Shown in pieces: positions 11,583 through 47,649 of a DNA stretch of 64,000 bases. Numbering within the stretch: the first letter of the stretch is position 1; each line of letters opens with the position of its first letter. Under the pieces are notes generated by a model, which had not been told where the DNA came from, made no database searches, and was given only the letters and a program-made list of their open reading frames with translations. This DNA is from Chiloscyllium plagiosum (taxonomy: Eukaryota), in assembly GCF_004010195.1 (NCBI RefSeq), contig NC_057755.1, positions 1,105,306-1,169,305 on the forward strand. The letters are read 5' to 3'. Position numbers and translations under genes: made by a program.

Positions 11583-12765
11583 AGTCATAGAGATGTACCG
11601 CATGGAACCAGACCCTTCAGTCCAACTTGTCCATGCCAAGCAGATATCCCAACCCAATCTATTGCCACCTGCCAGTACCCGACCCATATCCCTCCAAACC
11701 CTACCTATTCATATATACATCCAGATGCCTTTTAAATGTTGCAATTGCACCAGCCTCCACCACTTTCTCTGGCAGCTCATCCCATGTATGTGCCTCCCTC
11801 CACGTGAAAATGTTGCCCCTTAGGTCTCGTTTATATCTTTTCCCTCTCGCCCTAAACCTTTACACTCCAGTTCTGGACTCCCCCACTCCAGGGAAAAGAC
11901 TTCGTCTATTTATCCTATCCACGCCCCTTTTAAGATCATCCCTCAGCCTCCTACTCTCCAGGTAAAAAAAGCCCTCGTCAGTTCAATCTCTCCCTGTAGC
12001 TCAAATCCTCCATCCCTGCCAACATCTTTTCTGAAGTCTTTCAAGTTTCTGAACAACTTTCCGAAAGGAAGGAGGCCAGAATTGCACTGCAATATTCCAA
12101 ACAGTGGCCTAACCAATATCTTGTACAGCCGCCAGATGCCCTCCCAACTCATGTACTCAAAGGTCTGACCATAAAGGAAAGCACACCAAATACCACACTA
12201 TCCTATCTACCTGCGACTCCACTTTCATGGAGCTATGAACCTGCACTCCACGGTCTCTTTGTTCATCAACACTCCCTAGGATATTACCATTAACTGTGTA
12301 AGTCCTGTTAAGAGTTCTTCTCCCAAAATGCAGCACCTCACATTTATCTAAATCAAACTCTATCTGCCACTTCTCAGTCCATTGGCTCATCTAATTCAGA
12401 TCACGTTGCAATCTGAGGTAACCTCCTTCACTGTCCACAACACCTCCAATTTTGTTGTCATCTGCAAACTTAATAAGTACACTTCTTATGCTCACGTCCA
12501 AATCATTTATATAAATGATGAAAAGTAGTGGACCCAGTGCCGAACCTTGTGGCATTCCACTGGTGACAGGTCTCCAGTCTGAAAATAATCCTCCACTACC
12601 ACCCTCTGTCTTCTACCTTTGAGCTAGTTCTGTATCGAAATGGCTAGTTCACCCTGTATTCCTTGAGGTTTTAGCTTGTTAACCAATCTCCCGTGTGGAA
12701 CATTGTCGAACACCTTACGAAAGTCCAAAAAAGGTCACGTCCACAGCTCAACACACATCAATCCT
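11583..12765 (-). mobile_element. CR1 LINE 3' end (RT C-terminus and UTR), nested
   Basis: Minus-strand motifs WTEKWQIEFDLDKCEVLHFG and LYKILVRP; ctctatga tail at 11583; continues at 17697-18240. Confidence 0.9.
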
Positions 12766-14147
12766 GATTTGGAGATGCCGGTGTTGGACTGGGGTGTACA
12801 AAGTTAAGAATCACACAACACCAACTTATAGTCCAACAGGTTTAATTGGAAGCACTAGATGTCAGAGCGCCGCTCCTTCATCAGGTGGTTGTGGAGGCCA
12901 CAATTGTAAGGCACAGAATTTATAGCAAAAATTTACAGTGTGATGTACCTGAAATTATACATTGAGAAAAATCTTGATTGTCTACTGAGTCTTTCACCTG
13001 TTCGAATACCATGATAGTTTCACTTGTTTCATGTGTAAATCACAAAACCTTTTTTTAAAAGTTGCATTCTCAGGTTAGCTGTAAGGATTGGTGTTAGCTA
13101 GACAATATGTTGAAGGTGTTAGCCCCCTGTGTGCTCTGTCTATGCCATGATGTTTATATTAATTATAATCTAAAAAGTGAGATAACAGAGATTTACATGA
13201 ATTCATGCAGTTTTTGAGAAAAGCACAATGTAATTCTACAAGTACGAACTCACCCCACAAAATATACGTATATGTGTGCATGTGTGTGTGTCTGGGTTGG
13301 GGGGCTGTGAGAGAGAGTGGATATGTGTGTATGTGAGTGTAGAGTGTCTTAAGTCTGTGAGGAGGTGCATGTGTGAGTGTGAGAGTGTGTGTGTGTCTGG
13401 GGTGAGGGATTGTGAGTGTCTATGAGAGAGAGTGCATATGTATGTGTGTGAGTGTAGAGTGGTCTAAGTCTCTGAGAGGATGCATGACAGACACTGTGTT
13501 TCTCTGCGTGGTCTGTGTTGTAGGTTGACTTGAGCGGGTTTGTGATCCGCAATCCTTTTGGGATCTTTCCTGCTTGCGTGCATTTCTGTAGAAACTTGAT
13601 GTTTGTGTCGATATGTGCAATCTTCTTGGAGATCCTCTCCACTTTAAGCCGGCAATTAGTGGTGTTGGTAGACATGACAGACACTTGCAAACCCCCACCC
13701 CAGGCACACACACACCCTCCCACACTCACACATGCACCCCTTCACAGATTTAAGACACTCTACACTCACATATGCACTCTGTCTCACACTCACAACCCCC
13801 CAAACCAGACACACACACATACACACAAACTACATGAATTCATGTAAAACTCTATTATCTCACTTTTTAGATTAGAATCAATACAAATATCATGGTTTAG
13901 ACAATAAAACACAGGGGACTAACACCTTCAACATATTGTCCAGCTAACACCAATTATTACAGCTAACCTGAGAATGCAACTTTAAAAATAAAGTTTTGTT
14001 ATTTTCACATGAAAGAAACGAAACTATCATGGTATTCGAACAGATGAAAGCCTCAATAGAAAATCAAGGTATTTTTCAATGTATAATTTCAAATATATCA
14101 CACTGTAAATTTTTGCTAAAAATTCTGTGCCTTACAATTGTGGCCTC

Positions 14148-14228
14148 CACAACCACCTGATGAAGGAGCGGCTCTCTGAAATGTAGTGCTTCCAATTAAA
14201 TGAGTTGGACTATAATCTGGTGTTGTGT
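14148..14228 (+). ncRNA. Hammerhead ribozyme-like motif in PLE pseudo-LTR
   Basis: cacCTGATGAaggagcggctctctGAAA followed by a tccaa..ttgga stem; homologs at 12810-12895 (-; GAAA->GACA) and 17605-17685 (+; CAGACGA). Stem I/III topology not resolved. Confidence 0.6.
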
Positions 14229-14275
14229 GATTCTTAACTTTGTGCACCCTAGTCCAACACCGTCATCTCCAAATC

Positions 14276-16909
14276 ATGTTTACTATCGGCACCACTAACT
14301 GCCGTCTTAAAGTGGAGAGAATCTTCAAGAAGACCACAGACATCAAGTTTCCACACAAATGCAGGCAAGCAGGAAAGATCCCAAAAGGATTACGGATCAT
14401 GAACCCGCTCAAGTCAACCTACAACAAAGACTACGCAGAGAAACTTTGCCACCTCACCTCTCGCAAACTCCTCAATCATCTCATGCACCAACTCTGCAGC
14501 AGGCGCCACAACCTTGAAATTCACATGCAGTCCACACTCTCAGCCTGCCCTTAGGATACAGCAGTACAATTGTGCGACATTGCTAAACTGACAAGGCGAC
14601 AAAACTACACCACTTACATGCGCACCTAGAACAAAAAACTGGAGAAACTTGGAATTCTCACCAGTAATACCAAAACCCACTCAGGGACTACAGTAGACAA
14701 CATTATCACTGTGGAGAAGTTTATTATCAACTTATTGGACCACATCCCTCCACCAGAAGACATTGAAGTCCTGAGCAGGGGTCTCAACTTCTGGCCCACC
14801 ACCAAAATGGACTCCTTAGTTCTTGCAGCAGACACGGAGGAGTTCATCAGACGAGTGAGACTCCAGGAATTCTTTCAAGGTGCCAGCAGTGATCCCAATG
14901 AACCACTAATGAACTGGAACTGTCATCAAAGGGATCTGTAGAGGAGTGACAAAAGAAGGTGTCAATTTGGACTCCACCGGAGGTCCGCTGCCTTGGGCTT
15001 GACATGTATGCTCAAACTGTCAGGAAATATATAAATGCCAGATTCATCAGCTGTAACCACAAGGGAGAGCAAAACATTATCCGTTCACAACGCAATGCCA
15101 TCCAGACCCTCAAAGCCAATCACAACATTGTCATCAAACCAGCAGATAAAGGAGGAGCCATTGTCATTCAGAATAGAACAGATTACTGCAAGGAAGTGTA
15201 CGGACAACTGAACATCCAGGAACACTATAGGCAACTACCAGCTGATCCGACCAAAGGACACACGCGTGAATTAAACACATTGATCAGGACTTTAGATCCA
15301 GTCCTTCAGAGTTCCCTACGCTCCCTCATCCCAACGTACTTCTCGTGTAGGTGACTTCTATTGCCTTCCAAAGATACACAAAGCCAATACACCAGGACCT
15401 ACGTATCAGGCAATGGGACTTTGTATGAGAATCTCTCCAGGTATATTTAAGGTATCTTGAAACGCATTGTACAGGAGATGCCCAGCTTCTGTCGCAACAC
15501 TACGGATTTCTTACAGAAAATCAGCACCCACGGACCAGTCGAACGAGGAACATTCCTCGTCACAATGGATGTTTCAGCACTCTACACCAGCATCCCCCAC
15601 AATGATGGCATCGCTACAACAGCCTCAGTACTCAACACCAACAACTGCCAATCTCCAAATACCATCCTACAACTCTACTGCTTTATCCTCGATCACAACG
15701 TCTTTACCTTTGACAGCTAGTTCTTCATCCAGACACATGGAATAGCCATGGGGAGCAAATTTGCACTCCAATATGCCAACATCTTCATGCACAGGTTCGA
15801 ACAAGTCTTCTTCTCTACGCAGGATCTCCAACCAACATTATACACCAGGCACATTGACGACATTTTCTTCCTCTGGTCCCATGGCGAGGAGTCACTGATA
15901 AAACTACATAGTGATATCAACTTTTTCATCCCACAATAAAACTCACCATGGACTACTCTCGACTATCTATCTCATTCTTGGACACATGCATTTCCATCAA
16001 AGATGGATACCTCAGAACCACACTCAATCGCAAACCCACAGACAACCTCACAATGCTACACTTCTCCAGCTTCCACCCAAAACATATTAAAACAGCTATC
16101 CCCTATGGACAAGCCCTATGTGTACACCGGATCTGCTCAGATGAGGAGGAACGTGACGGGCACCTGAAAATAATCAGGGATACCCTTATAAGAACGGGGC
16201 ATGATGCGCAATTCATCAACCACCAGTTCCAATGTGGCACAGCAAGGAACTGTAATGACCTCCTCAGGAGACAGACACGTGCTGCAACTGATAATGTACC
16301 CTTCGTTGTTCAGTGCTTCCCACGAGCTGAAAAATTACACCATGTTCTTCGTGACCTGCAACACATTATCAATGAGGATGAGCACCTCCCCACACCTCCA
16401 CTGTTCGCCTTTAAACAACGGCCAAAGCTCAAACAGATCATGGTTCGTAGCGAAGTTGCCCAGCTTTCAGGACAACTCCATACAACCCTGTCATGATAGG
16501 CGCTGCAAGACGTGTCAGTTTGTGGACATGGACACCACCAATTCACATGGGGACACCTCCCACCATGTACGTGGCAGGTACTCATGTGACTCAGCCAACG
16601 TTGTCTATCTTATTACATTGCAGGTAAGGATGCCCTGAGGCATGGTACATTGGCGAAACCGAGCAAAGGCTACGGCAACAAATGAATGGGCACTGCACAA
16701 CAATCAACAGACAGGAGTGTTCCCTCCCAATTGGGGAACACTTCAGTGGTCCAGGACATTCGACCCCGGACCTTCGGGTGACCATCCTCGAAGGCGGACT
16801 TAGGGACATTCAGCAGAGAAAAATGGCCGAGCAAAGGCTGATAGGTAAGTTCCATTCCCATAGGGAGAAGCTCAACAGGGACCTTGGGTTCATGTCACAC
16901 TACTGGTGA
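14276..16909 (+). pseudogene. PLE reverse transcriptase + GIY-YIG endonuclease ORF, disrupted
   Basis: IKPADKGGAIVI, LVTMDVSALYTSIPH, GIAMGSKFALQYANIFM, YTRHIDDIF, HPKHIKTAIPYGQAL; Cys linker PCHDRRCKTC; YSCDSANVVYLI..AWYIGETEQRLR; ends LNRDLGFMSHYW*; several stops and frameshifts. Confidence 0.92.
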
Positions 16910-17696
16910 CAACCATTGCACTATACACACACATACAGACATACACACATATACACAGCCACGCACACAGACAATCACTCACATCCTTACAGACACACAC
17001 ACTCCCACTCATACATGCAACCTCTCAGAGACTTAGACCACTCTACACTCACGAACACACCTATACACTCTCTCCCACAGACACTCACAACACCCACCCC
17101 AGGCACACACACACACTCCCACACTCACACATGCACCCCTTCACAGACTTAAGACACTTTACACTCACATACCCTGTCTCCCACACTCACATCCCCCAAC
17201 CTAGACACACACATAGACGCACAAAGACCCACGTGCACACATATACATATAGTTTGTGGGGTGAATTTGTACTTGCAGAGATACGTTGTGCTTTACTCAA
17301 AAACTGCATGAATTTATGTAAAACTCTGTTTGACTCACTTTTAAGATTAGAATCAATCTAAACATCATGGCATAGACAGAGAACACCTTCAACATATTGT
17401 CTAGCTAACACCAATTGTTACAGCTAACCTGAGAATGTAAATTTAAAATAACGTTTTGAGATTTACACATGAAAGAAGTGGCATCATGGTATTCGAACAG
17501 ATGAAAGACTCAACACCCAAACAATGCATTTTTAAATGTATAATTTCAGTTGCATCTCACTGTAAATCTTTGCGATAATTTTTGAGCCTTACAATTGTGC
17601 CCTCCACAACCACCAGACGAAAGATCGGCACTTCGAAAGCTAGTACTTCCAATTAAATCTGTTGGACTATAACCTGGTGTCGTGTGATTCGTATCT

Positions 17697-22332: not shown

Positions 22333-23199
22333 TTAATTTCCTAGTGATTTTGATCCTTGCAGGAGGAACGTGTGTTCTTTCTAACTGCACAACGCGCTGC
22401 CTGTTGGCTATGGTAATGTTGGATCTACTGTTCATTTTCACGAAGAACATAATGTGGCAACTCAAATTCTTTTATTTCCCAAGGTGTTTCTGGACCTAAC
22501 CCCTGTGTGCAGATATGTCGTTGTCCTGGTCAGTGCAGCCATAGACTGTACCATTTAAATCACTGTCCTTTTGTACGTTGATCTTTTTGTGGCCATTTGC
22601 TGCCTGAAAATGAAGATAAAATATTGGACAGAGAAAACCTTGGCTGTGATTCTCGCGACAACTGGCATGCTGCTCTGTTCAAAAAATACCCACTTCTATT
22701 TTTGGTTTCAACCAGTGAAGATAATTGAAAATAATCCGTGGTTGTGCCGAACAAAGTCAAGTTGTTTTACTGATGGCTGGGATTTACGTGCGTTAATATC
22801 ATTTTAACCACTTTCATCCCATTCGTGTTAATTCTGTTGATGAATACTCTGACGGTCAGGTACATTTTAATGGACAGTCGAGTCCGCAAGAGCCTGAGGG
22901 GTCAGAGGAAAGGAGAGAGTCACAAAGACGCAGATATGGAGAGCCAGAGGAAGTCGGTGATTTCCCTCTTCTACATATCCATCAGCTTCATTCTTCTGTC
23001 GGTAATGTATGGTGCAAACATCTTATACTTTGGCAGTAAAGGAATGAATGTTGCAAAGTACAAATGTCTAGCTGATTTTAAATCCGTCCAAGAAACGCTG
23101 AAGGATTTCAGCTGCAGTACTTACACATTATTTTATGCAGTATCTCTGTCCAAGTTCAAAGCGAAGTTCAGGAATGCGGTGCACCAACTGGTAACGTAA
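22333..23199 (+). pseudogene. Class A GPCR (shark GPR139-like family) exon 2 pseudogene
   Basis: Acceptor ctctttcag|tt; VNFLVILILAGGTCVLSNCTTRCLLAM..DLL colinear with 36511-37397; 1-bp deletion ~22491, TAA at 22556, DRF->DLF, second frameshift ~22780-22805. Confidence 0.9.
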
Positions 23200-35419: not shown

Positions 35420-36480
35420 TTCTAGGATACAGAACTGGCTCATAGGTAGAAGACAAAGGGTGGTGGTGGAGTGTTGTTCTTCAGACTGGAGGCCTGTAAC
35501 TAGTGGAGTGCCACAAGAATTGGTGTTGGTGCTGTACGTTTTGTTCATTTACATAAATTATTTGAATGCGAGCATAAGAAGTACAGTTAGGAAGTTTGCA
35601 GATGGCACCAAAATTGGAGATATAGTTGACAGCGAAGAGGATCATGACCAGATGAGTCAATGGGCTGAGAAATGGCAAGTGGAGTTTAATTCAGATAAAC
35701 GTGAGGTGCTGCATTTTGGGAAAGCAAATCTCAGCAGGACTTATACACTTAATGGTTATGTCCTAGGGAGTGTTGTTGAACAAGGACACCTAGGAGTGCA
35801 GGTTCATAGCTCCTTGAAAGTGGAGCCACAGGTAGATAGGAGAGTGAAGGAGGCGTTTGATATGCTTTCCTTTATTGGTCAGAGTATTGAGTACAGGAGT
35901 TGAGAAGTCATGTTGCGGCTGTACATGATATGGGTTAGGCCACTGTTGGAATATTGTGTGCAATTCTGGTCTCCTTCCTATATTGTGAAACTTGAAAGGG
36001 TTCAGAAAAGATTTATAAGGATGTTGCCAGGGTTGAAGGATTTGAGCGATAGGGAGAGGTTGAACAGGCTGGGGCTGTATTCCCTGAAGCGTCGGAGGCA
36101 GAGGGGTGGTCTTATAGAGATTTACAAAATTACGTGGGGCACAGATAGGGTAAATAAGCAAAGTCTTTTTCCTGTGGTTGGGGAGTCCAGTACGAGAGTG
36201 CATGGGTTTAGGGTGAGAGGGGAAAGATATAAAAGTGACCTACGGGGTAACTTTTTCACACAGGCAGTGGTGTGTGTATGGAATGAGCCAGAGGAAGTGG
36301 TGGAGGCTGGTACAATGGCAATATTTAAGAGGCATTTGGATGTGTATATGAATAGGAAGGGTTTGGAGGGATATGGGTCAGGTGCTGGCAGGTGGGATTA
36401 GATCATCTTGGGATATCTGTTCGGCATGGATGGGTTGGACTGAATGGTCTGTTTCCATGCTGTACATCTCTATGACTCTG
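35420..36480 (+). mobile_element. CR1 LINE 3' end in the GPCR intron
   Basis: VTSGVPQ, KFADGTK, LEYCVQFWSP, FFTQAVVCVWN; ctctatgactc tail ends about 30 bp before the exon-2 acceptor. Confidence 0.93.
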
Positions 36481-36510
36481 TCTCTTTTTTTCCTTTCTCT
36501 CCTCCTACAG

Positions 36511-37397
36511 TTAGTCTAGTGGTGATTGTAATTCTAGCTCGGGGCAAGTGCGGTCTTTCTAACTGCATCACTCGCCATCTTCTGGCCATGGCAGCTTCTG
36601 ATCTACTGTTCACTGTTTTTAACATCGTACTTCGACGATTTGCGTATTACTATTATCCAAAGTGTTTCCTGGACGTCACTCCTGTTTGTAGTGTTACCTA
36701 CGTCCTGAGCTGGTTGACCATTGATTGTTCTGTCTGGTTCACTGTTGCTTTATCTTTTGATCGATTTGTCGCCATTTCATTTCATCAGATAAAATCTCAG
36801 TATTGCACAGAGAAAACTGTAACAATTGTTCTCGCAACAATCTGCATTTTCTTTTGTTTAAAGAACGTTCCCAACTATTTTCGATTTAAACCTGGAATGA
36901 TCAGCAACAATGTTCCATGGTACTGTTCTACCACGTCCTGGTATTATAACGATTCTCGCTGGGCAAGTTTTAAATATTTTGAAAAACTTTTAACACCATT
37001 TCTCCCATTCACTTTTATTCTCATTATCAATATTCTGACTGTCAGATATATATTTAAGGCCACGAAGATTCGAGAGGGGCTGAGGGGACAGAGGAAAATT
37101 GAAAATGACCCAGAGGTAGAGAGCAGAAAGAAATCAGTGGTTTTACTCTTTGCCATATCTTCCAGTTTCATTCTTCTCTGGTTGGTGTATATTTTGTATT
37201 TCTTTCATGCTAGTTATTCCTTGGATCCTGATACTCTTGATCTCCTTCGAATAATGGCATATATGCTACAAAAGTTAAGTTGCTGCACAAATGCTTTTAT
37301 TTATGTGGTCACCCAGAAAAAGTTCAGAGACCAATTAAAGTGTGCAGTGAAATATCCAGTTATAAAAATTATTGAATTGGTTAATAAATCCAAGTAA
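36511..37397 (+). CDS. Class A GPCR (shark 'probable GPR139'-like family), coding exon 2; spliced protein 317 aa
   Basis: Polypyrimidine tract + cag acceptor; open frame with seven hydrophobic segments: ARGKCGLS, LLAMAASDLL (TM2), PVC, SVWFTVALSFDRFVAI (TM3), PWYC, PFLPF (TM5), FILLW (TM6), CCTNAFIY (TM7), KKFR helix 8; stop 37395-37397. Confidence 0.93.
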
Positions 37398-39407: not shown

Positions 39408-39639
39408 AGGTGCACTCCGCGGGAGATCTGGGACTTATGCCGAGAGAGTATCATTGAGCGACAGACCTCTGGATATTTTAAGCAGACTCTGGCAACCAAT
39501 GTTCCTTTGCTCATGTGCACTAAGCAGCTGTTGCGTATCTTCATGCTTGTTTGTATCTGTGTGAGAGAGATTTTGAATCTCAATCCCCCTTGGATCGTTT
39601 AATCTCACACCCTGCCTGAATCAGGCCTCCCGAAACAAA

Positions 39640-39846
39640 GTCAGATAGTTTGGTGCTGGAAAAACCCAGCAGGTCAGGCAGCGTCGACGTGTTGGCAAAA
39701 GCTGTTCATCCGATAGGTTAAAGGGCTTATGCCTGAAATGTGGACTCTCCCGTTCCTTAGACGCTGCCTGACTTGCTGTGCTTTTCTAGCACTACACTTC
39801 TTTGACTCTAATCTCAAGCATCTGCAGTCCCGACTTACTCCTCCTC
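39640..39846. mobile_element. Short fold-back PLE-derived element
   Basis: Inverted arms (tggtgctggaaaa..aggtcaggcagcgtc / gacgctgcctgacttg..ttttctagcacta); degenerate hammerhead core at the centre; aaacaaa flanks both sides. Confidence 0.7.
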
Positions 39847-40487
39847 AAACAAACCCCTGGAGGGATAGCCTGTCCCTAATACGAGATAGGGAGTAGGAGA
39901 GACAATCGAGAGATCGGGAGCCAACCAGAATGGTGAGTACCAACGCTCTAAACTCTCCACACATTTCCCTGACTCCTGTTTGTACCTCTGATTATTTCTG
40001 TTTCTCTATTCTTTCTCTCCCTGGGCCTTGTACTCTCTACTTGTCTCTCCCTCTCTCACATTGTCAACATTTTCTTTTATCTTTTTTCTCTCTTCTTTCA
40101 GTCTTTGTCTACATTCTTTGCCACTCACTTTTGTTTTGCCACTCTCTCCCACCTTTCCATTCCTTCCCTATTTCTTTCAGTCTTGAAACTGCACTGCCCG
40201 CAATATTGCACCATCCCCCCAAAAATTACAGTCTCCAAAATCTAGTGCCTACACAGCCCCTGTCAAATTGTTCTACCTCCCTGAACCAGCCCCTTTGTAA
40301 TTTCTCCATTACATAATCAGCTCACTTAGAAGCCTTTCTGTATCTCCATCCATTCACCATATCCCAGGTGGTATGACCCAACCCCTGGGCTGGAGGACAA
40401 AGTGGGCATGTGCAGAAATAAGATTGCGTTTTTCTACAGCTGCTGGAAAGTTGATGCCCTACTAAATTTGGCCTAGATTTACTTCAG

Positions 40488-40632
40488 GGAGGAGGAAGTG
40501 AGGACTGCAGATGCTGGATATCAGAGCTTAAAAATGTGTTGCTGGAAAAGCGCAGTTGGTCAGCCAGCATCAAAGGAACAGGAGAATCGACGTTTCGGGC
40601 ATTCTCCTGTTCCTTTGATGCTGCCTGACCTG
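40488..40632. mobile_element. Short fold-back PLE-derived element with 15-bp TSD
   Basis: TSD ctagatttacttcag at 40473-40487 and 40633-40647; 23-bp perfect stem 40565-40587/40601-40623. Confidence 0.8.
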
Positions 40633-40764
40633 CTAGATTTACTTCAGTTGGCTTGGCCGTTTTGGGGAATTTCGGGAGGTACTCAAAGAGCAGAGACTCA
40701 CACACATGTGGATAATTAGAAATTCCTCGTTTCATTGCTCCAGGTTTATCCAGGAGCCATAGCT

Positions 40765-43925: not shown

Positions 43926-44059
43926 ACTTTAGACTCGTCTGGTGACCTATATTTGCTGTCAATGATGCAGTGAGCTAATCTAATGCCATTCCGTGGAGAC
44001 CATGGTCGACCGCTGTCCTTTACTTCAGGAGGATCAGCATTTTGGGCAAAAGCCCCTGA

Positions 44060-44890
44060 GCTCCTCAGATGCCGCCTGAAATGCATTGTATTTCCAGCAC
44101 CACAGTCTCGATTCTAAAGGTAAGTGTTCTAATGCAGTGCGCACCATACTCCAAATCCAACACCACTGCACGTTTCTTTTGGGATTGTCCACTCCCAAGT
44201 TTCTAAGATGCATGCAGTGCCAGCTCCATCGGGGAACAATAGTGCAACAGAGTTTCCATCCCTGCATCAAAGTCATTGATACAGATTATTAATAGCTGGG
44301 GTCCAAAGACTGAACCTTGCATCACCCATTTGCTGCTTTCTGCACGGTAGGATGAGGCTTAATGGGATGAAGTGCATACTCCTACTCTTAGTTTCTTTGT
44401 TTTGTGCAAGAGCCAGAAATTCAATTTTGACAGAGGTGGAAGAACAATTTTGAGAGTTTGGCTGTTTCGGGATTTAGCATTTTCTGACTCAGAATTCCTC
44501 TGGCGTGGTTTCCTCATTATGCCTTATTGGTCTCACTACCATCACCACCACCCCCACCCCCCCCCCCCACCCCCCGCCTCCCCCAATATCCTTTGATCCC
44601 TTTAGACCTGCGAAGTAGATCTCCCTTCTCTGTGAAAATGTTTAGTCTGAATGGCTTTCTGTGGCAGAGAATTCCACAAGCTCCCCCCTCTCTGGTTAAA
44701 ACATTTCTCCCCATCTCATTCTGAAATAGCCTAGACTTAGACTGTGACTCCCTGTGTCTGGATTCCCCAGTCACTGCAAACATCCTCCCTGCGCTTATCC
44801 TGTTAGAATTTTAGAGCTTTCTGTAAGATCCCCCTCATTCTTGTGAACCCCAGTGACTTTAACCGATCCAGTCTCTTTTCATATATCTCC
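44060..44890 (-). mobile_element. Decayed CR1 fragments
   Basis: Reverse complement of RT C-terminal and 3' UTR motifs (gaattccacaag..acatttctcc). Confidence 0.6.
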
Positions 44891-44946
44891 TTTACTCATT
44901 CAGTCCTGTTCTCTCTCTCTCTCTCTCTCGTCCTCTATCACATGCT

Positions 44947-45925
44947 TCGGGCAAAAGCCCTTCATCAGGAATACAGTCGGAGTGCCTGAAGGCTGGAGAG
45001 ATAAATGAGAGGAGGGTGGGGGCGAGGAAAAAGTAGCATAGACTACAATAGGTGAGTAGGGGAGGGGATGAAGGTAATAGGTCAGGGAGGAGGGTGGAGC
45101 ATTTCCTGTTTCAAGAGTTTTTCTTCTTCCTTATTGTTCGTGCTGTCAAAACTCGTTCATGTTGACGAGAATGGCAATGTGATTGAAGCTGAATCTATTT
45201 AAAGAAAAGGAATGCTGCTTCCAGCACATCATTGACACTTGTATCACACATATAGGATACATCACTTGGTTCGCGTACACTTGTTCTCCTTGCTAGTCAA
45301 ATGTTGGTTCTGGAGATTGTTCCTGCTCATCGATGCTGCCTTCTCTGCTGTGCTCTTTTGTTGAGCGCCACACTTTTCAACTCTGATCTCTCATACTTGC
45401 GATCCTCATTTTCTCCTGGAGATTTTTAACTACCTAATAAGACATTCTCCTCCTCCTGTTGGGGCACGTGGCGGAGGTGCTGAAGATCAAATGAAGATGA
45501 ATATGAAGATCAATTCAAAAACTCTTGAATTGCTTTTACTACAGGGCAATAGCAATTCCATTCATACAGACCCTTTAAACTATCAATAGCAGAAATGGCA
45601 AGCTCTTGAAAACTCTTTACTTTCTGCAACTAATCAATGCATAAACATTTTGACAGGAAATACTCCGCCCTCCTCCCAGACCTATCACCTTCATCTCCTC
45701 CCCAACTCACCTATTGTACTCTGTGCTACTTTCTCCCCACCTCCACCCTCCTCTCATTTATCTCTCCACACTTCAGGCTCTCTGCCTGTATTCCTGATGA
45801 AGGGCTTTTACCTGAAACGTCGATTTTCAGGCACCATCTGAGGATGCTGCATGAACTGCTGTGTTTTTCCAACACCACTCTAATCTAAACTCTGATTTCC
45901 AGCATCTGCAGTCATTATTGTTACC
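44947..45925. mobile_element. Composite PLE-derived element: inverted hammerhead-bearing arms around an internal segment, 16-bp TSD
   Basis: TSD tcctctatcacatgct at 44931-44946 and 45926-45941; inverted arms 44947-45109 and 45653-45816. Confidence 0.8.
45791..45830 (+). ncRNA. Minimal hammerhead ribozyme-like core
   Basis: ttcCTGATGAagggcttttacctGAAAcgtcga; the mirror copy at 44946-44970 (-) has a perfect stem II gggc-tttt-gccc. Confidence 0.6.
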
Positions 45926-47649
45926 TCCTCTATCACATGCTCTCACACTCAAAATCACATTTTGTCTCTCTTGCCACTTTTTCTCACACTCTTACTCGGA
46001 CTCTGTCTCTTGGTCACACTCATTCTCTCTGCCTCCCTCTCCCTTGCTCGCTCTCACTTTCATGCTCCCTCTCAGTCTCGTTCCCTGTCTCTCTCACAGT
46101 CCCTCAACTTGAACTCTCAAGCTACAAAGTGTAACATGTCAGATCAGCCACTGAAATGAGATCTTGTTCAGAATCTGTCGCAGAAGTTGAACATGGAGTC
46201 AGGCTTGTTTCATCCTAATAGCAGGAATTTATAAAATATCACACTGTCTTGCTGTGATTTGAAATGTGGTGGTGTCAAGAAACAGGAAAAATAAAACTCT
46301 AATTTAACATACGTCCTGGATGGAATGATTCGCCCGTGCTTGTGATGGAGTGAATGAGTGAAGGTCAATGTGTCAGGTTGTCCAATTCAGTACGTTTGCT
46401 TGAGAGTATGTGAATGCATGACAGCATACAAGTGCATGACTGAATGAGTTTATGTATGTGTATATGTGACCTTATTTGTGTAAAAAAATGTGTGTCTGTG
46501 TATATGTGTGTTTAAGTAATAAGAGTGTTTGAGTTTGTGTGAGACACTGAGAGTGTGTGTGAGTATGTGCATCTATGTGTGACAGTGTGACTGCATGTGA
46601 AGGAAGAATTCCTAACGGATATTAATATCTTCATTAAAAGAGAAAATCTGATGAAAAGGGATTCATAGCAAGATGTCCTCATGTTCCCAATACAGTCTCC
46701 TGACAATAACTGTCAATGTATCATTGTCCTCCTAATTGTTAGCTCTACTACTATGTTAACTTACTAATATCTGTGTACACGATCACCAGAGTCCTCCAGA
46801 CAATAATGGTTAATAATTTCCCATCACATTTTAAACGAAATGTTCTGTTTCTTTTCTATTCTTCCTATAAATGTAAATCGCCTACTTACAGTGCATCTGC
46901 TAAAGTTTTAAATATAATTCATACAGTACAGACAGCACAGCATATTTTATGATGGGATGTAGCAAACTTTGTTACACTCAGCACCTTCATGTTGCAGCGT
47001 AATAACATCCCATCAGAGATCTGCCCTCCATCAGGGACAAAACCTCCCTGGATCTGTAAGTGTAGACTGGGCAGGGAACGTGGATTTTAATCTGTCACTG
47101 AGTCAGTTTGGAAATCTGTGCTGCACATTATATTCCATCTGTCAATGACTTGCTCACTCAGTGAAGCTGGTCATATCGGGTCACAGCCTCTTTGGTCGTC
47201 TCTCGGACGCAACGTGGGTTTGTCAGTGACCCTGGAGACATCATAAATGATTCAGAGAAAGGGAACAAGTATATCAATTGTAAATGGCCATGTCTTTAGC
47301 AGTGACTCTGCTTGCATCCCCACTCGTAATAGCTCACGAAGCTGGAAATGATCTTGATTGATGCCTACTGTGTCCTTTACCCTGCAGGGCACAGTTAGCA
47401 TAGTACGTAGTTTGCCTTAACATTACAATGTTCTAATATACAAGCAAAGTACAGTCAGGGATGGGAATGTAGAGGCGAGAGAGTGATAAGTTTGGTCAGT
47501 AAATTGAGAGCAGGCTATTAATAGGCTGTCATTCTGGTGCATTCAAACAGACACGCACTCCCCAAGTCCCCACTCTCTCCTGCCTTTCCCTATTTATAAA
47601 GGCAATGTCCCAGTCAACAAATCTAAAATGGCTGACTAACTCTTTTTTA

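Follow-up and report, generated by a model that had tools for sequence, protein, structure and literature searches.

Unrelated DNA in the loop of an inverted Penelope-like insertion in a shark: a probable single-event capture of host sequence

Penelope-like elements are known to carry foreign sequence with them. In the available text of Arkhipova et al. (2013, PMC3846280) a host gene and several non-coding sequences are described as captured between Penelope terminal repeats bounded by target-site duplications (TSDs), and self-priming and template jumps are proposed for the elements; transduction by Penelope-like elements is likewise listed as known in the relevant part of PMC6431247. An inverted copy and a tail are presented as typical of Penelope-like insertions in the accessible portions of PMC8557442, where the origin of the inverted repeats is described as open, and the passages on minimal hammerhead ribozymes in PMC4209133 note opposite-strand pairs 100-700 bp apart in Schistosoma.

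Here we describe a shark locus of related architecture, in which a long stretch of unrelated DNA lies between two inverted copies of a Penelope-like end. The window analysed is the whole stretch of 64 kb, within which the unit occupies 44931-45941, and evidence from outside the window came from public contigs of four sequencing runs: X1 (organism A, which carries the same species label), X9 (organism B), X19 (organism C) and one single-cell RNA run. A literature search that covered mostly non-subscription texts and few Repbase or Dfam entries found no publication on such a layout in sharks.

Architecture of the unit and its family

A sequence-only reading of the window had described a perfect 16-bp TSD around two inverted arms of about 160 bp, with a 13-bp inverted repeat and an older fragment of the same family in the spacer between them; all of these features were recovered, and every coordinate given for them held on recheck. 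The two TSD copies (44931-44946 and 45926-45941, both read on the plus strand) form a direct repeat of 100% identity, and when the two 60-bp flanks were shuffled none of 1000 trials gave 16 bp, the best reaching 14. The left copy adjoins a (CT)n run and has its last base in common with the end of the left arm. The arms themselves (44946-45109 and 45653-45816) are 164 nt each and 88% identical, with 19 differences in 164 nt, four of them of CpG type, and neither has a TSD of its own.

The left arm consists of an inverted partial copy of a Penelope-like terminal repeat (44947-45099, minus strand) that ends within a hammerhead motif after GA(A), followed by a short junction sequence discussed below. 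The right element (45662-45925, plus strand) is a 5'-truncated terminal repeat that runs 109 nt beyond its arm (45817-45925), and thereby gives the unit a one-sided tail. Since the depth of the family, which reaches 10^5-10^6 in three species, falls in the bin that holds 45925, we take this position to be the 3' end of the family. The loop between the arms is 543 bp long. Its 13-bp inverted repeat (45110-45122 and 45517-45529, plus strand) is of a kind seldom produced by shuffling, in that a non-overlapping repeat of at least 13 appeared anywhere in 4 of 1000 shuffles and one longer than 10 starting in the first four bases in none of 1000. The older family fragment (45310-45424, the element itself at about 45319-45415, plus strand) is bounded by a 9-bp TSD of its own and shows visibly greater divergence, and is likely an earlier, separate insertion. 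Contigs of X1 contain both outer junctions with no differences (315 and 504 bases, the left one in a piece covering 44657-44971), and the structure as a whole, TSD, arms and loop together, is confirmed as real.

The window holds six copies of the family, counting this unit and its inner fragment, and four of the six are inverted pairs: 39636-39845, 40488-40632, 44039-44113 and the unit itself. The pair at 40488-40632 is a good control for the unit, being a fold-back without a long spacer, with arms 97% alike over 30 bases, a 13-nt loop, a 1-nt overlap and a perfect 15-bp TSD (40473-40647 with the TSD included); at 39636-39845 and 44039-44113 no TSD of at least 8 bases was found. In all of the 15 contig joints listed, the end of the left arm is tied to the right element with hardly any filler or none between them, and most of those listed occur in all three of organisms A, B and C. 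Given these pairs and joints, an inverted layout and long TSDs are routine for the family, and only the long loop is unusual. No longer family copy, and no RT or GIY-YIG frame tied to the family, was found in the window, and exact scans for two family motifs in viral, metagenome and prokaryote collections returned no match.

The surrounding window is repeat-rich DNA. It includes a large decayed Penelope-like element of another family (12765-17696); inverted copies about 80% alike lie at its left, its hammerhead-like core is at 14157, and the best TSD candidate, of 8 bp, is not a clear one. The RT-related frames at 14950-16638 belong to this other family, and for that at 15915-16493 the best matches are bamboo shark and epaulette shark proteins at 75-77% identity. 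Elsewhere, a 317-aa frame at 36444-37397 encodes a rhodopsin-family receptor (Pfam 7tm_1, E 1e-18), and a partial frame resembling it at about 22774-23199 suggests a receptor gene cluster.

The distribution of the unit among the three organisms bears on its age. The right TSD copy is crossed by X1 record 7 and X9 record 24, the contig of organism B running through the tail, the TSD and the right flank with 40 differences in 533 bases. In organism C the flank contig (X19 record 16, 71 differences in 471) matches no further than 45926, the first base of the TSD, and continues in letters that do not match, so that organism C likely has the empty site. Divergence in the flanks is 6.2% between A and B (52/832) and 15.1% between A and C (71/471), and the divergence of the arms, 11.6% (95% interval 7-18%), falls between the two. 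The age suggested by the arms would thus match the presence of the unit in B and its likely absence from C, and is consistent with insertion before A and B separated.

The captured segment and its donor

Outside the older fragment the loop has a depth of 5-45, against 10^5-10^6 on the arms, and most of it lies at 5-22, similar to the contigs of single-copy flanks; depth here is summed contig depth at an 80% threshold, not copy number. Because the loop is low-copy, it does not come from the interior of a multi-copy element, and its depth fits about two loci, the insertion and a donor, and not a family.

Contigs that leave the window sequence at the edges of the loop point to such a donor. On the left, the match ends at 45110 for X1 record 4 as well as for X9 record 18; the coordinates of minus-strand records follow a convention deduced from pieces cut at a masked repeat, and the two species break at 45110 under either convention. 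On the right, X9 record 20, which is on the plus strand and unambiguous, stops at 45660 and is followed by 205 letters that do not match the arm, and an X1 contig piece also ends at 45660. We infer from these departures that an arm-free donor of 45110-45660 exists in organisms A and B, and these breakpoints delimit the captured host segment as 551 bp, to which no strand is assigned, with the outer arm of the 13-bp inverted repeat starting exactly at the left breakpoint. The arm-linked path is represented in X9 by a contig of depth about 13 that, judging from its end values, spans from 45087 or earlier to 45185 across the left arm-loop junction. Depth arithmetic in X9, in which the length of the second piece was fitted and about 62% of the run was read, fits an arm-linked and an arm-free path meeting near 45216-45244 (predicted 21.24 and 21.95, observed 21.3 and 22).

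The divergence of these contigs is not uniformly what a donor would show. While X9 record 18 differs from the window by 10.4%, X1 record 4 differs at 11 of 502 positions (2.2%) and X9 record 20 at 6 of 135 (4.4%), and these two low values count against a clean donor reading, given that about 11% would be expected for a neutral donor of the age of the arms. The six differences listed for X1 record 4 all fall in its first 91 bases, and it is plausible that the low divergence of this record reflects an assembly mosaic of the insertion and donor loci.

No donor was found elsewhere in the window, which extends 45 kb to the left and 18 kb to the right. The loop gave no protein matches: a 76-codon frame with one stop (45434-45661) is without a homologue among proteins of 41-133 residues and without a Pfam match, and its first 51 residues are without an Atlas match, although such searches are weak for short decayed frames. 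In the approximately 2% of the single-cell RNA run that was read, depth on the loop outside the older fragment was zero, a sample too thin to bear on expression.

Several local features of the segment may be recorded here. Extra depth, 29-45, occurs at about 45560-45620 in all three organisms; a motif of 10-12 bases is repeated three to four times within 45517-45653; and five substitutions private to the window lie within 36 bases (45136-45171) in comparison with X1 and both X9 contigs. The sequence at 45631-45657 has what we take to be a resemblance to a splice acceptor. Flipping of the loop between the arms was considered and rejected, since a flipped loop would still align into the arm at about 88%.

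Junction order and the route of capture

The inner ends of the arms retain a trace of the order of events. Family sequence leaves the left arm after 45099, as seen in loose contig ends, and the innermost 9-10 nt of each arm are non-family. Reverse-complemented, the last 10 bases of the left arm (45100-45109, minus strand) give the final 8 bases of the donor, a single extra base and the base with which the element begins. The extra base on the right (45661, plus strand) belongs neither to the donor, whose pieces end at 45660, nor to the family, which resumes at 45662, and it is present in both arms, which therefore share 8 donor bases, the extra base and the truncation point. Because the left arm repeats the donor-element junction, the mirror arm must have been copied from a molecule that already contained this junction, and the arrangement indicates that the junction came first and the mirror arm second. 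Furthermore, the end at the left breakpoint is complementary at about 9 of 11 positions to 45643-45653, directly before the duplicated part; together with the location of the breakpoint at the outer end of the 13-bp repeat, this makes it likely that the structure was closed by annealing of inverted microhomologies.

The reading that we favour, with a probability of roughly one half, is a single TSD-bounded insertion of a Penelope-like end carrying a 551-bp copy of host DNA, acquired by a template switch within the event and followed by fold-back of the cDNA. An element-encoded endonuclease would make staggered nicks 16 nt apart, and the right 3' end would prime reverse transcription at the family 3' end, with 264 nt being copied. 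The polymerase would then add one base, switch to a host template, either RNA or DNA, and copy 551 nt, after which the end of the cDNA would fold back on the same strand, to which it is complementary at 13 of 13 positions at 45517-45529 and at about 9 of 11 at 45643-45653, and the junction and arm would be copied as far as the hammerhead. The insertion would be completed by attachment of this end to the left overhang, with a microhomology of 1 nt.

We favour this order because it needs no source copy and agrees with the strand polarity of the unit as well as with the simple hairpins in its neighbourhood. Along the bottom strand the tail and one arm come first, in antisense, the donor follows, also in antisense, and the other arm is in sense, as in a self-primed hairpin; the left breakpoint falls on the outer end of the 13-bp inverted repeat; and in addition to the simple hairpin at 40488-40632, many arm-to-arm contig joints with short fillers occur in A, B and C among those listed. 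On the other hand, the perfect 13-bp match predicts copying from 45530, whereas the mirror arm starts at 45653. The resulting gap of 123 nt requires either a skip or use of the weaker site, and is unexplained by fold-back and by the chimeric-transcript route considered next alike.

In that alternative, which we regard as possible rather than probable, the capture was a transduction from a pre-existing source. A truncated copy would have inserted earlier after donor base 45660, a read-through transcript would have carried donor and element together, and both nicked ends would have primed, one at the end of the tail and the other inside the hammerhead, the two cDNAs then being joined head to head by inverted microhomology. 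Such a route accounts equally well for the shared junction, and the donor is not local to the window. There are also precedents for its parts, in that the available text of PMC11167929 reports a lizard element that cuts and extends both strands on RNA in vitro, with two internal start sites that define the tail, while that of PMC13174262 describes L1 5' transductions whose source copies were lost. However, in both A and B the match of the donor-like contigs ends at 45660, with the further letters in B leading off the arm, so the source allele would have to be lost or lie at a third locus that was not seen, and the depth arithmetic in the part of X9 that was read fits two paths. Taking the fold-back and chimeric-transcript routes together, we consider capture in a single event very probable.

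It is improbable that the loop represents a different mobile element, such as a small inverted-repeat element beginning at 45110, or the internal sequence of a longer Penelope-like element. While the exact start of the 13-bp inverted repeat at 45110 and the extra depth near 45560-45620 speak for a mobile element, most of the loop has the depth of single-copy flanks, the donor-like path continues beyond 45529 to 45660, the family's own upstream sequence at the loose end at 45099 is unlike the loop, and protein searches, weak as they are here, returned nothing.

The sequence-only reading had placed a hammerhead core at the outer end of each arm and proposed that the unit is a ribozyme-flanked, retrozyme-like vector. 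We numbered the motifs by hand against the description of the minimal motif in the accessible part of PMC4209133. The right motif (45790-45825, plus strand, with a predicted cut after 45821) is a complete but decayed minimal type I hammerhead, in which the core is complete but the conserved closing pair of stem II is a G-U and the stem also contains a C-A mismatch. The left motif (44947-44972, minus strand) is truncated: it retains the 5' strand of stem I, CUGAUGA, an extra A, an intact stem II and GAA, but halts there and runs into the TSD, without A15.1 and without a cleavage site. The two lie on opposite strands about 820 bp apart. A search with Rfam models, one of the checks proposed with that reading, detected no hammerhead here at E up to 10 and returned six chance matches only. 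Family contigs by the hundred start at 45790 in all four runs (521, 374, 443 and 160), a position that is the 5' edge of hammerhead stem I and not the cut site. The possibility that ribozyme cleavage set the junctions was rejected, as no junction lies at 45821, and the hammerheads are passengers in the insertion.

A non-autonomous cassette of this kind, moving as a unit and transducing host DNA repeatedly, is accordingly a highly improbable account of the locus. It is true that one TSD encloses the whole unit, and that terminal repeats suffice to mobilise intervening DNA in trans in the pertinent section of PMC3846280. Nevertheless, release of a unit-length RNA by two cuts, the defining step of retrozymes, cannot occur, because the motifs do not share a strand and no cleavage site is present in the left one. 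A transcript through the unit is moreover predicted to pair its arms as one long stem, burying the right motif, and the loop is low-copy, with no cassette family seen. That two copies inserted independently on either side of resident DNA, or that the locus was rearranged later, with the direct repeat arising by chance, is likewise highly improbable. Although the arms differ by 11.6% and the TSD is nevertheless perfect (at that rate a 16-mer would stay intact with a probability of 0.14-0.22), neither arm has its own TSD, both share the non-family junction bases, the match in organism C ends at the first TSD base, and no shuffle of the flanks gave 16 bp.

What survives of the sequence-only reading is therefore its structural core. 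That one insertion moved the whole unit is supported by the TSD, by the junction common to both arms and by the likely empty site in C, and that host DNA was transduced agrees with the arm-free donor contigs, which point to another locus as the origin of the loop. Where that reading had allowed for a spacer internal to a longer element, or for two separate insertions, we found a low-copy loop and arms without TSDs of their own. The retrozyme-like vector is not sustained, given the opposite strands, the truncated left motif, the absence of a junction at a cleavage site and a loop depth that fits about two loci.

The unit is the fossil of a single, old event, dead and showing no sign of function, and the interest of the locus rests on the clue that it gives to junction order. 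It supplies one ordered constraint on integration, the host-element junction before the mirror arm, and if fold-back is true, arms that duplicate a junction would establish the sequence in which integration proceeds. Across many such cases, the distance of the donor, its orientation and the bases at the junction would allow cDNA fold-back to be told apart from priming at both ends. We would extend the idea only tentatively to the proposal that the mirror arm in shark Penelope-like elements is generally produced by fold-back of nascent cDNA after an optional excursion into host sequence, in which case captures would be routine and would constitute a genome-wide route of host-DNA duplication in a vertebrate.

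Comparison with known systems

Retrozymes, of the LTR type in plants and the tandem non-LTR type in animals, resemble the shark unit, as far as the available text of the sources goes (bioRxiv 10.64898/2026.07.22.740005; PMC6155905), in being non-coding, hammerhead-bearing and related to Penelope terminal repeats. Their hammerheads are on the same strand, in direct or tandem repeats from which unit-length RNA is released, whereas the shark unit, which is not multi-copy, has inverted repeats and no more than a single motif on either strand. The motifs resemble the minimal Penelope-like hammerheads of Cervera and De la Pena (2014, PMC4209133), which in the parts of that paper available share the extra base after A9, a short stem I and the palindromic 15.2-16.2; in the shark pair one is truncated and one decayed, and they are about 820 bp apart.

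LINE-1 chimeric insertions and repair-made fold-backs, in the accessible accounts of PMC13174262 and PMC11724301, offer a parallel for unrelated sequence 5' of a truncated element within one TSD and for a fold-back at microhomology. The shark unit differs from the LINE-1 chimeras described there in having no poly(A) tail, and in that the sequence of its inverted part occurs a second time in the direct part.

Much of the unit is that of a standard endonuclease-bearing Penelope-like insertion as portrayed in the relevant portions of PMC8557442 and PMC11167929: a 5'-truncated copy is accompanied on its 5' side by an inverted one, only one end has a tail, and the terminal repeat contains a hammerhead. 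In the standard form given there the inverted copy is normally immediately adjacent, whereas in the shark 543 bp intervene; the shark copy contains no reading frame, and its tail of 109 nt is longer than the 30-40 bp described for Penelope-like elements in the former source.

Among the closest counterparts are the pLTR captures of Adineta vaga (Arkhipova, Yushenova and Rodriguez 2013, PMC3846280), in which, in the text available, one TSD surrounds the repeats and the unrelated DNA, one repeat copy is inverted and has a tail on one side, non-coding sequences are captured, and an empty site serves as proof. In the case presented there in detail a gene lies between two direct repeats within an 8-bp TSD, while in the shark the DNA lies in the loop of an inverted pair within a 16-bp TSD. 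Capture of this kind has thus already been described, and the shark unit is not a spreading ribozyme-driven vector; set beside the A. vaga cases in that source, it is distinguished by a tail of 109 nt in place of 30-40, by its vertebrate host, and by a mirror arm that repeats the capture junction.
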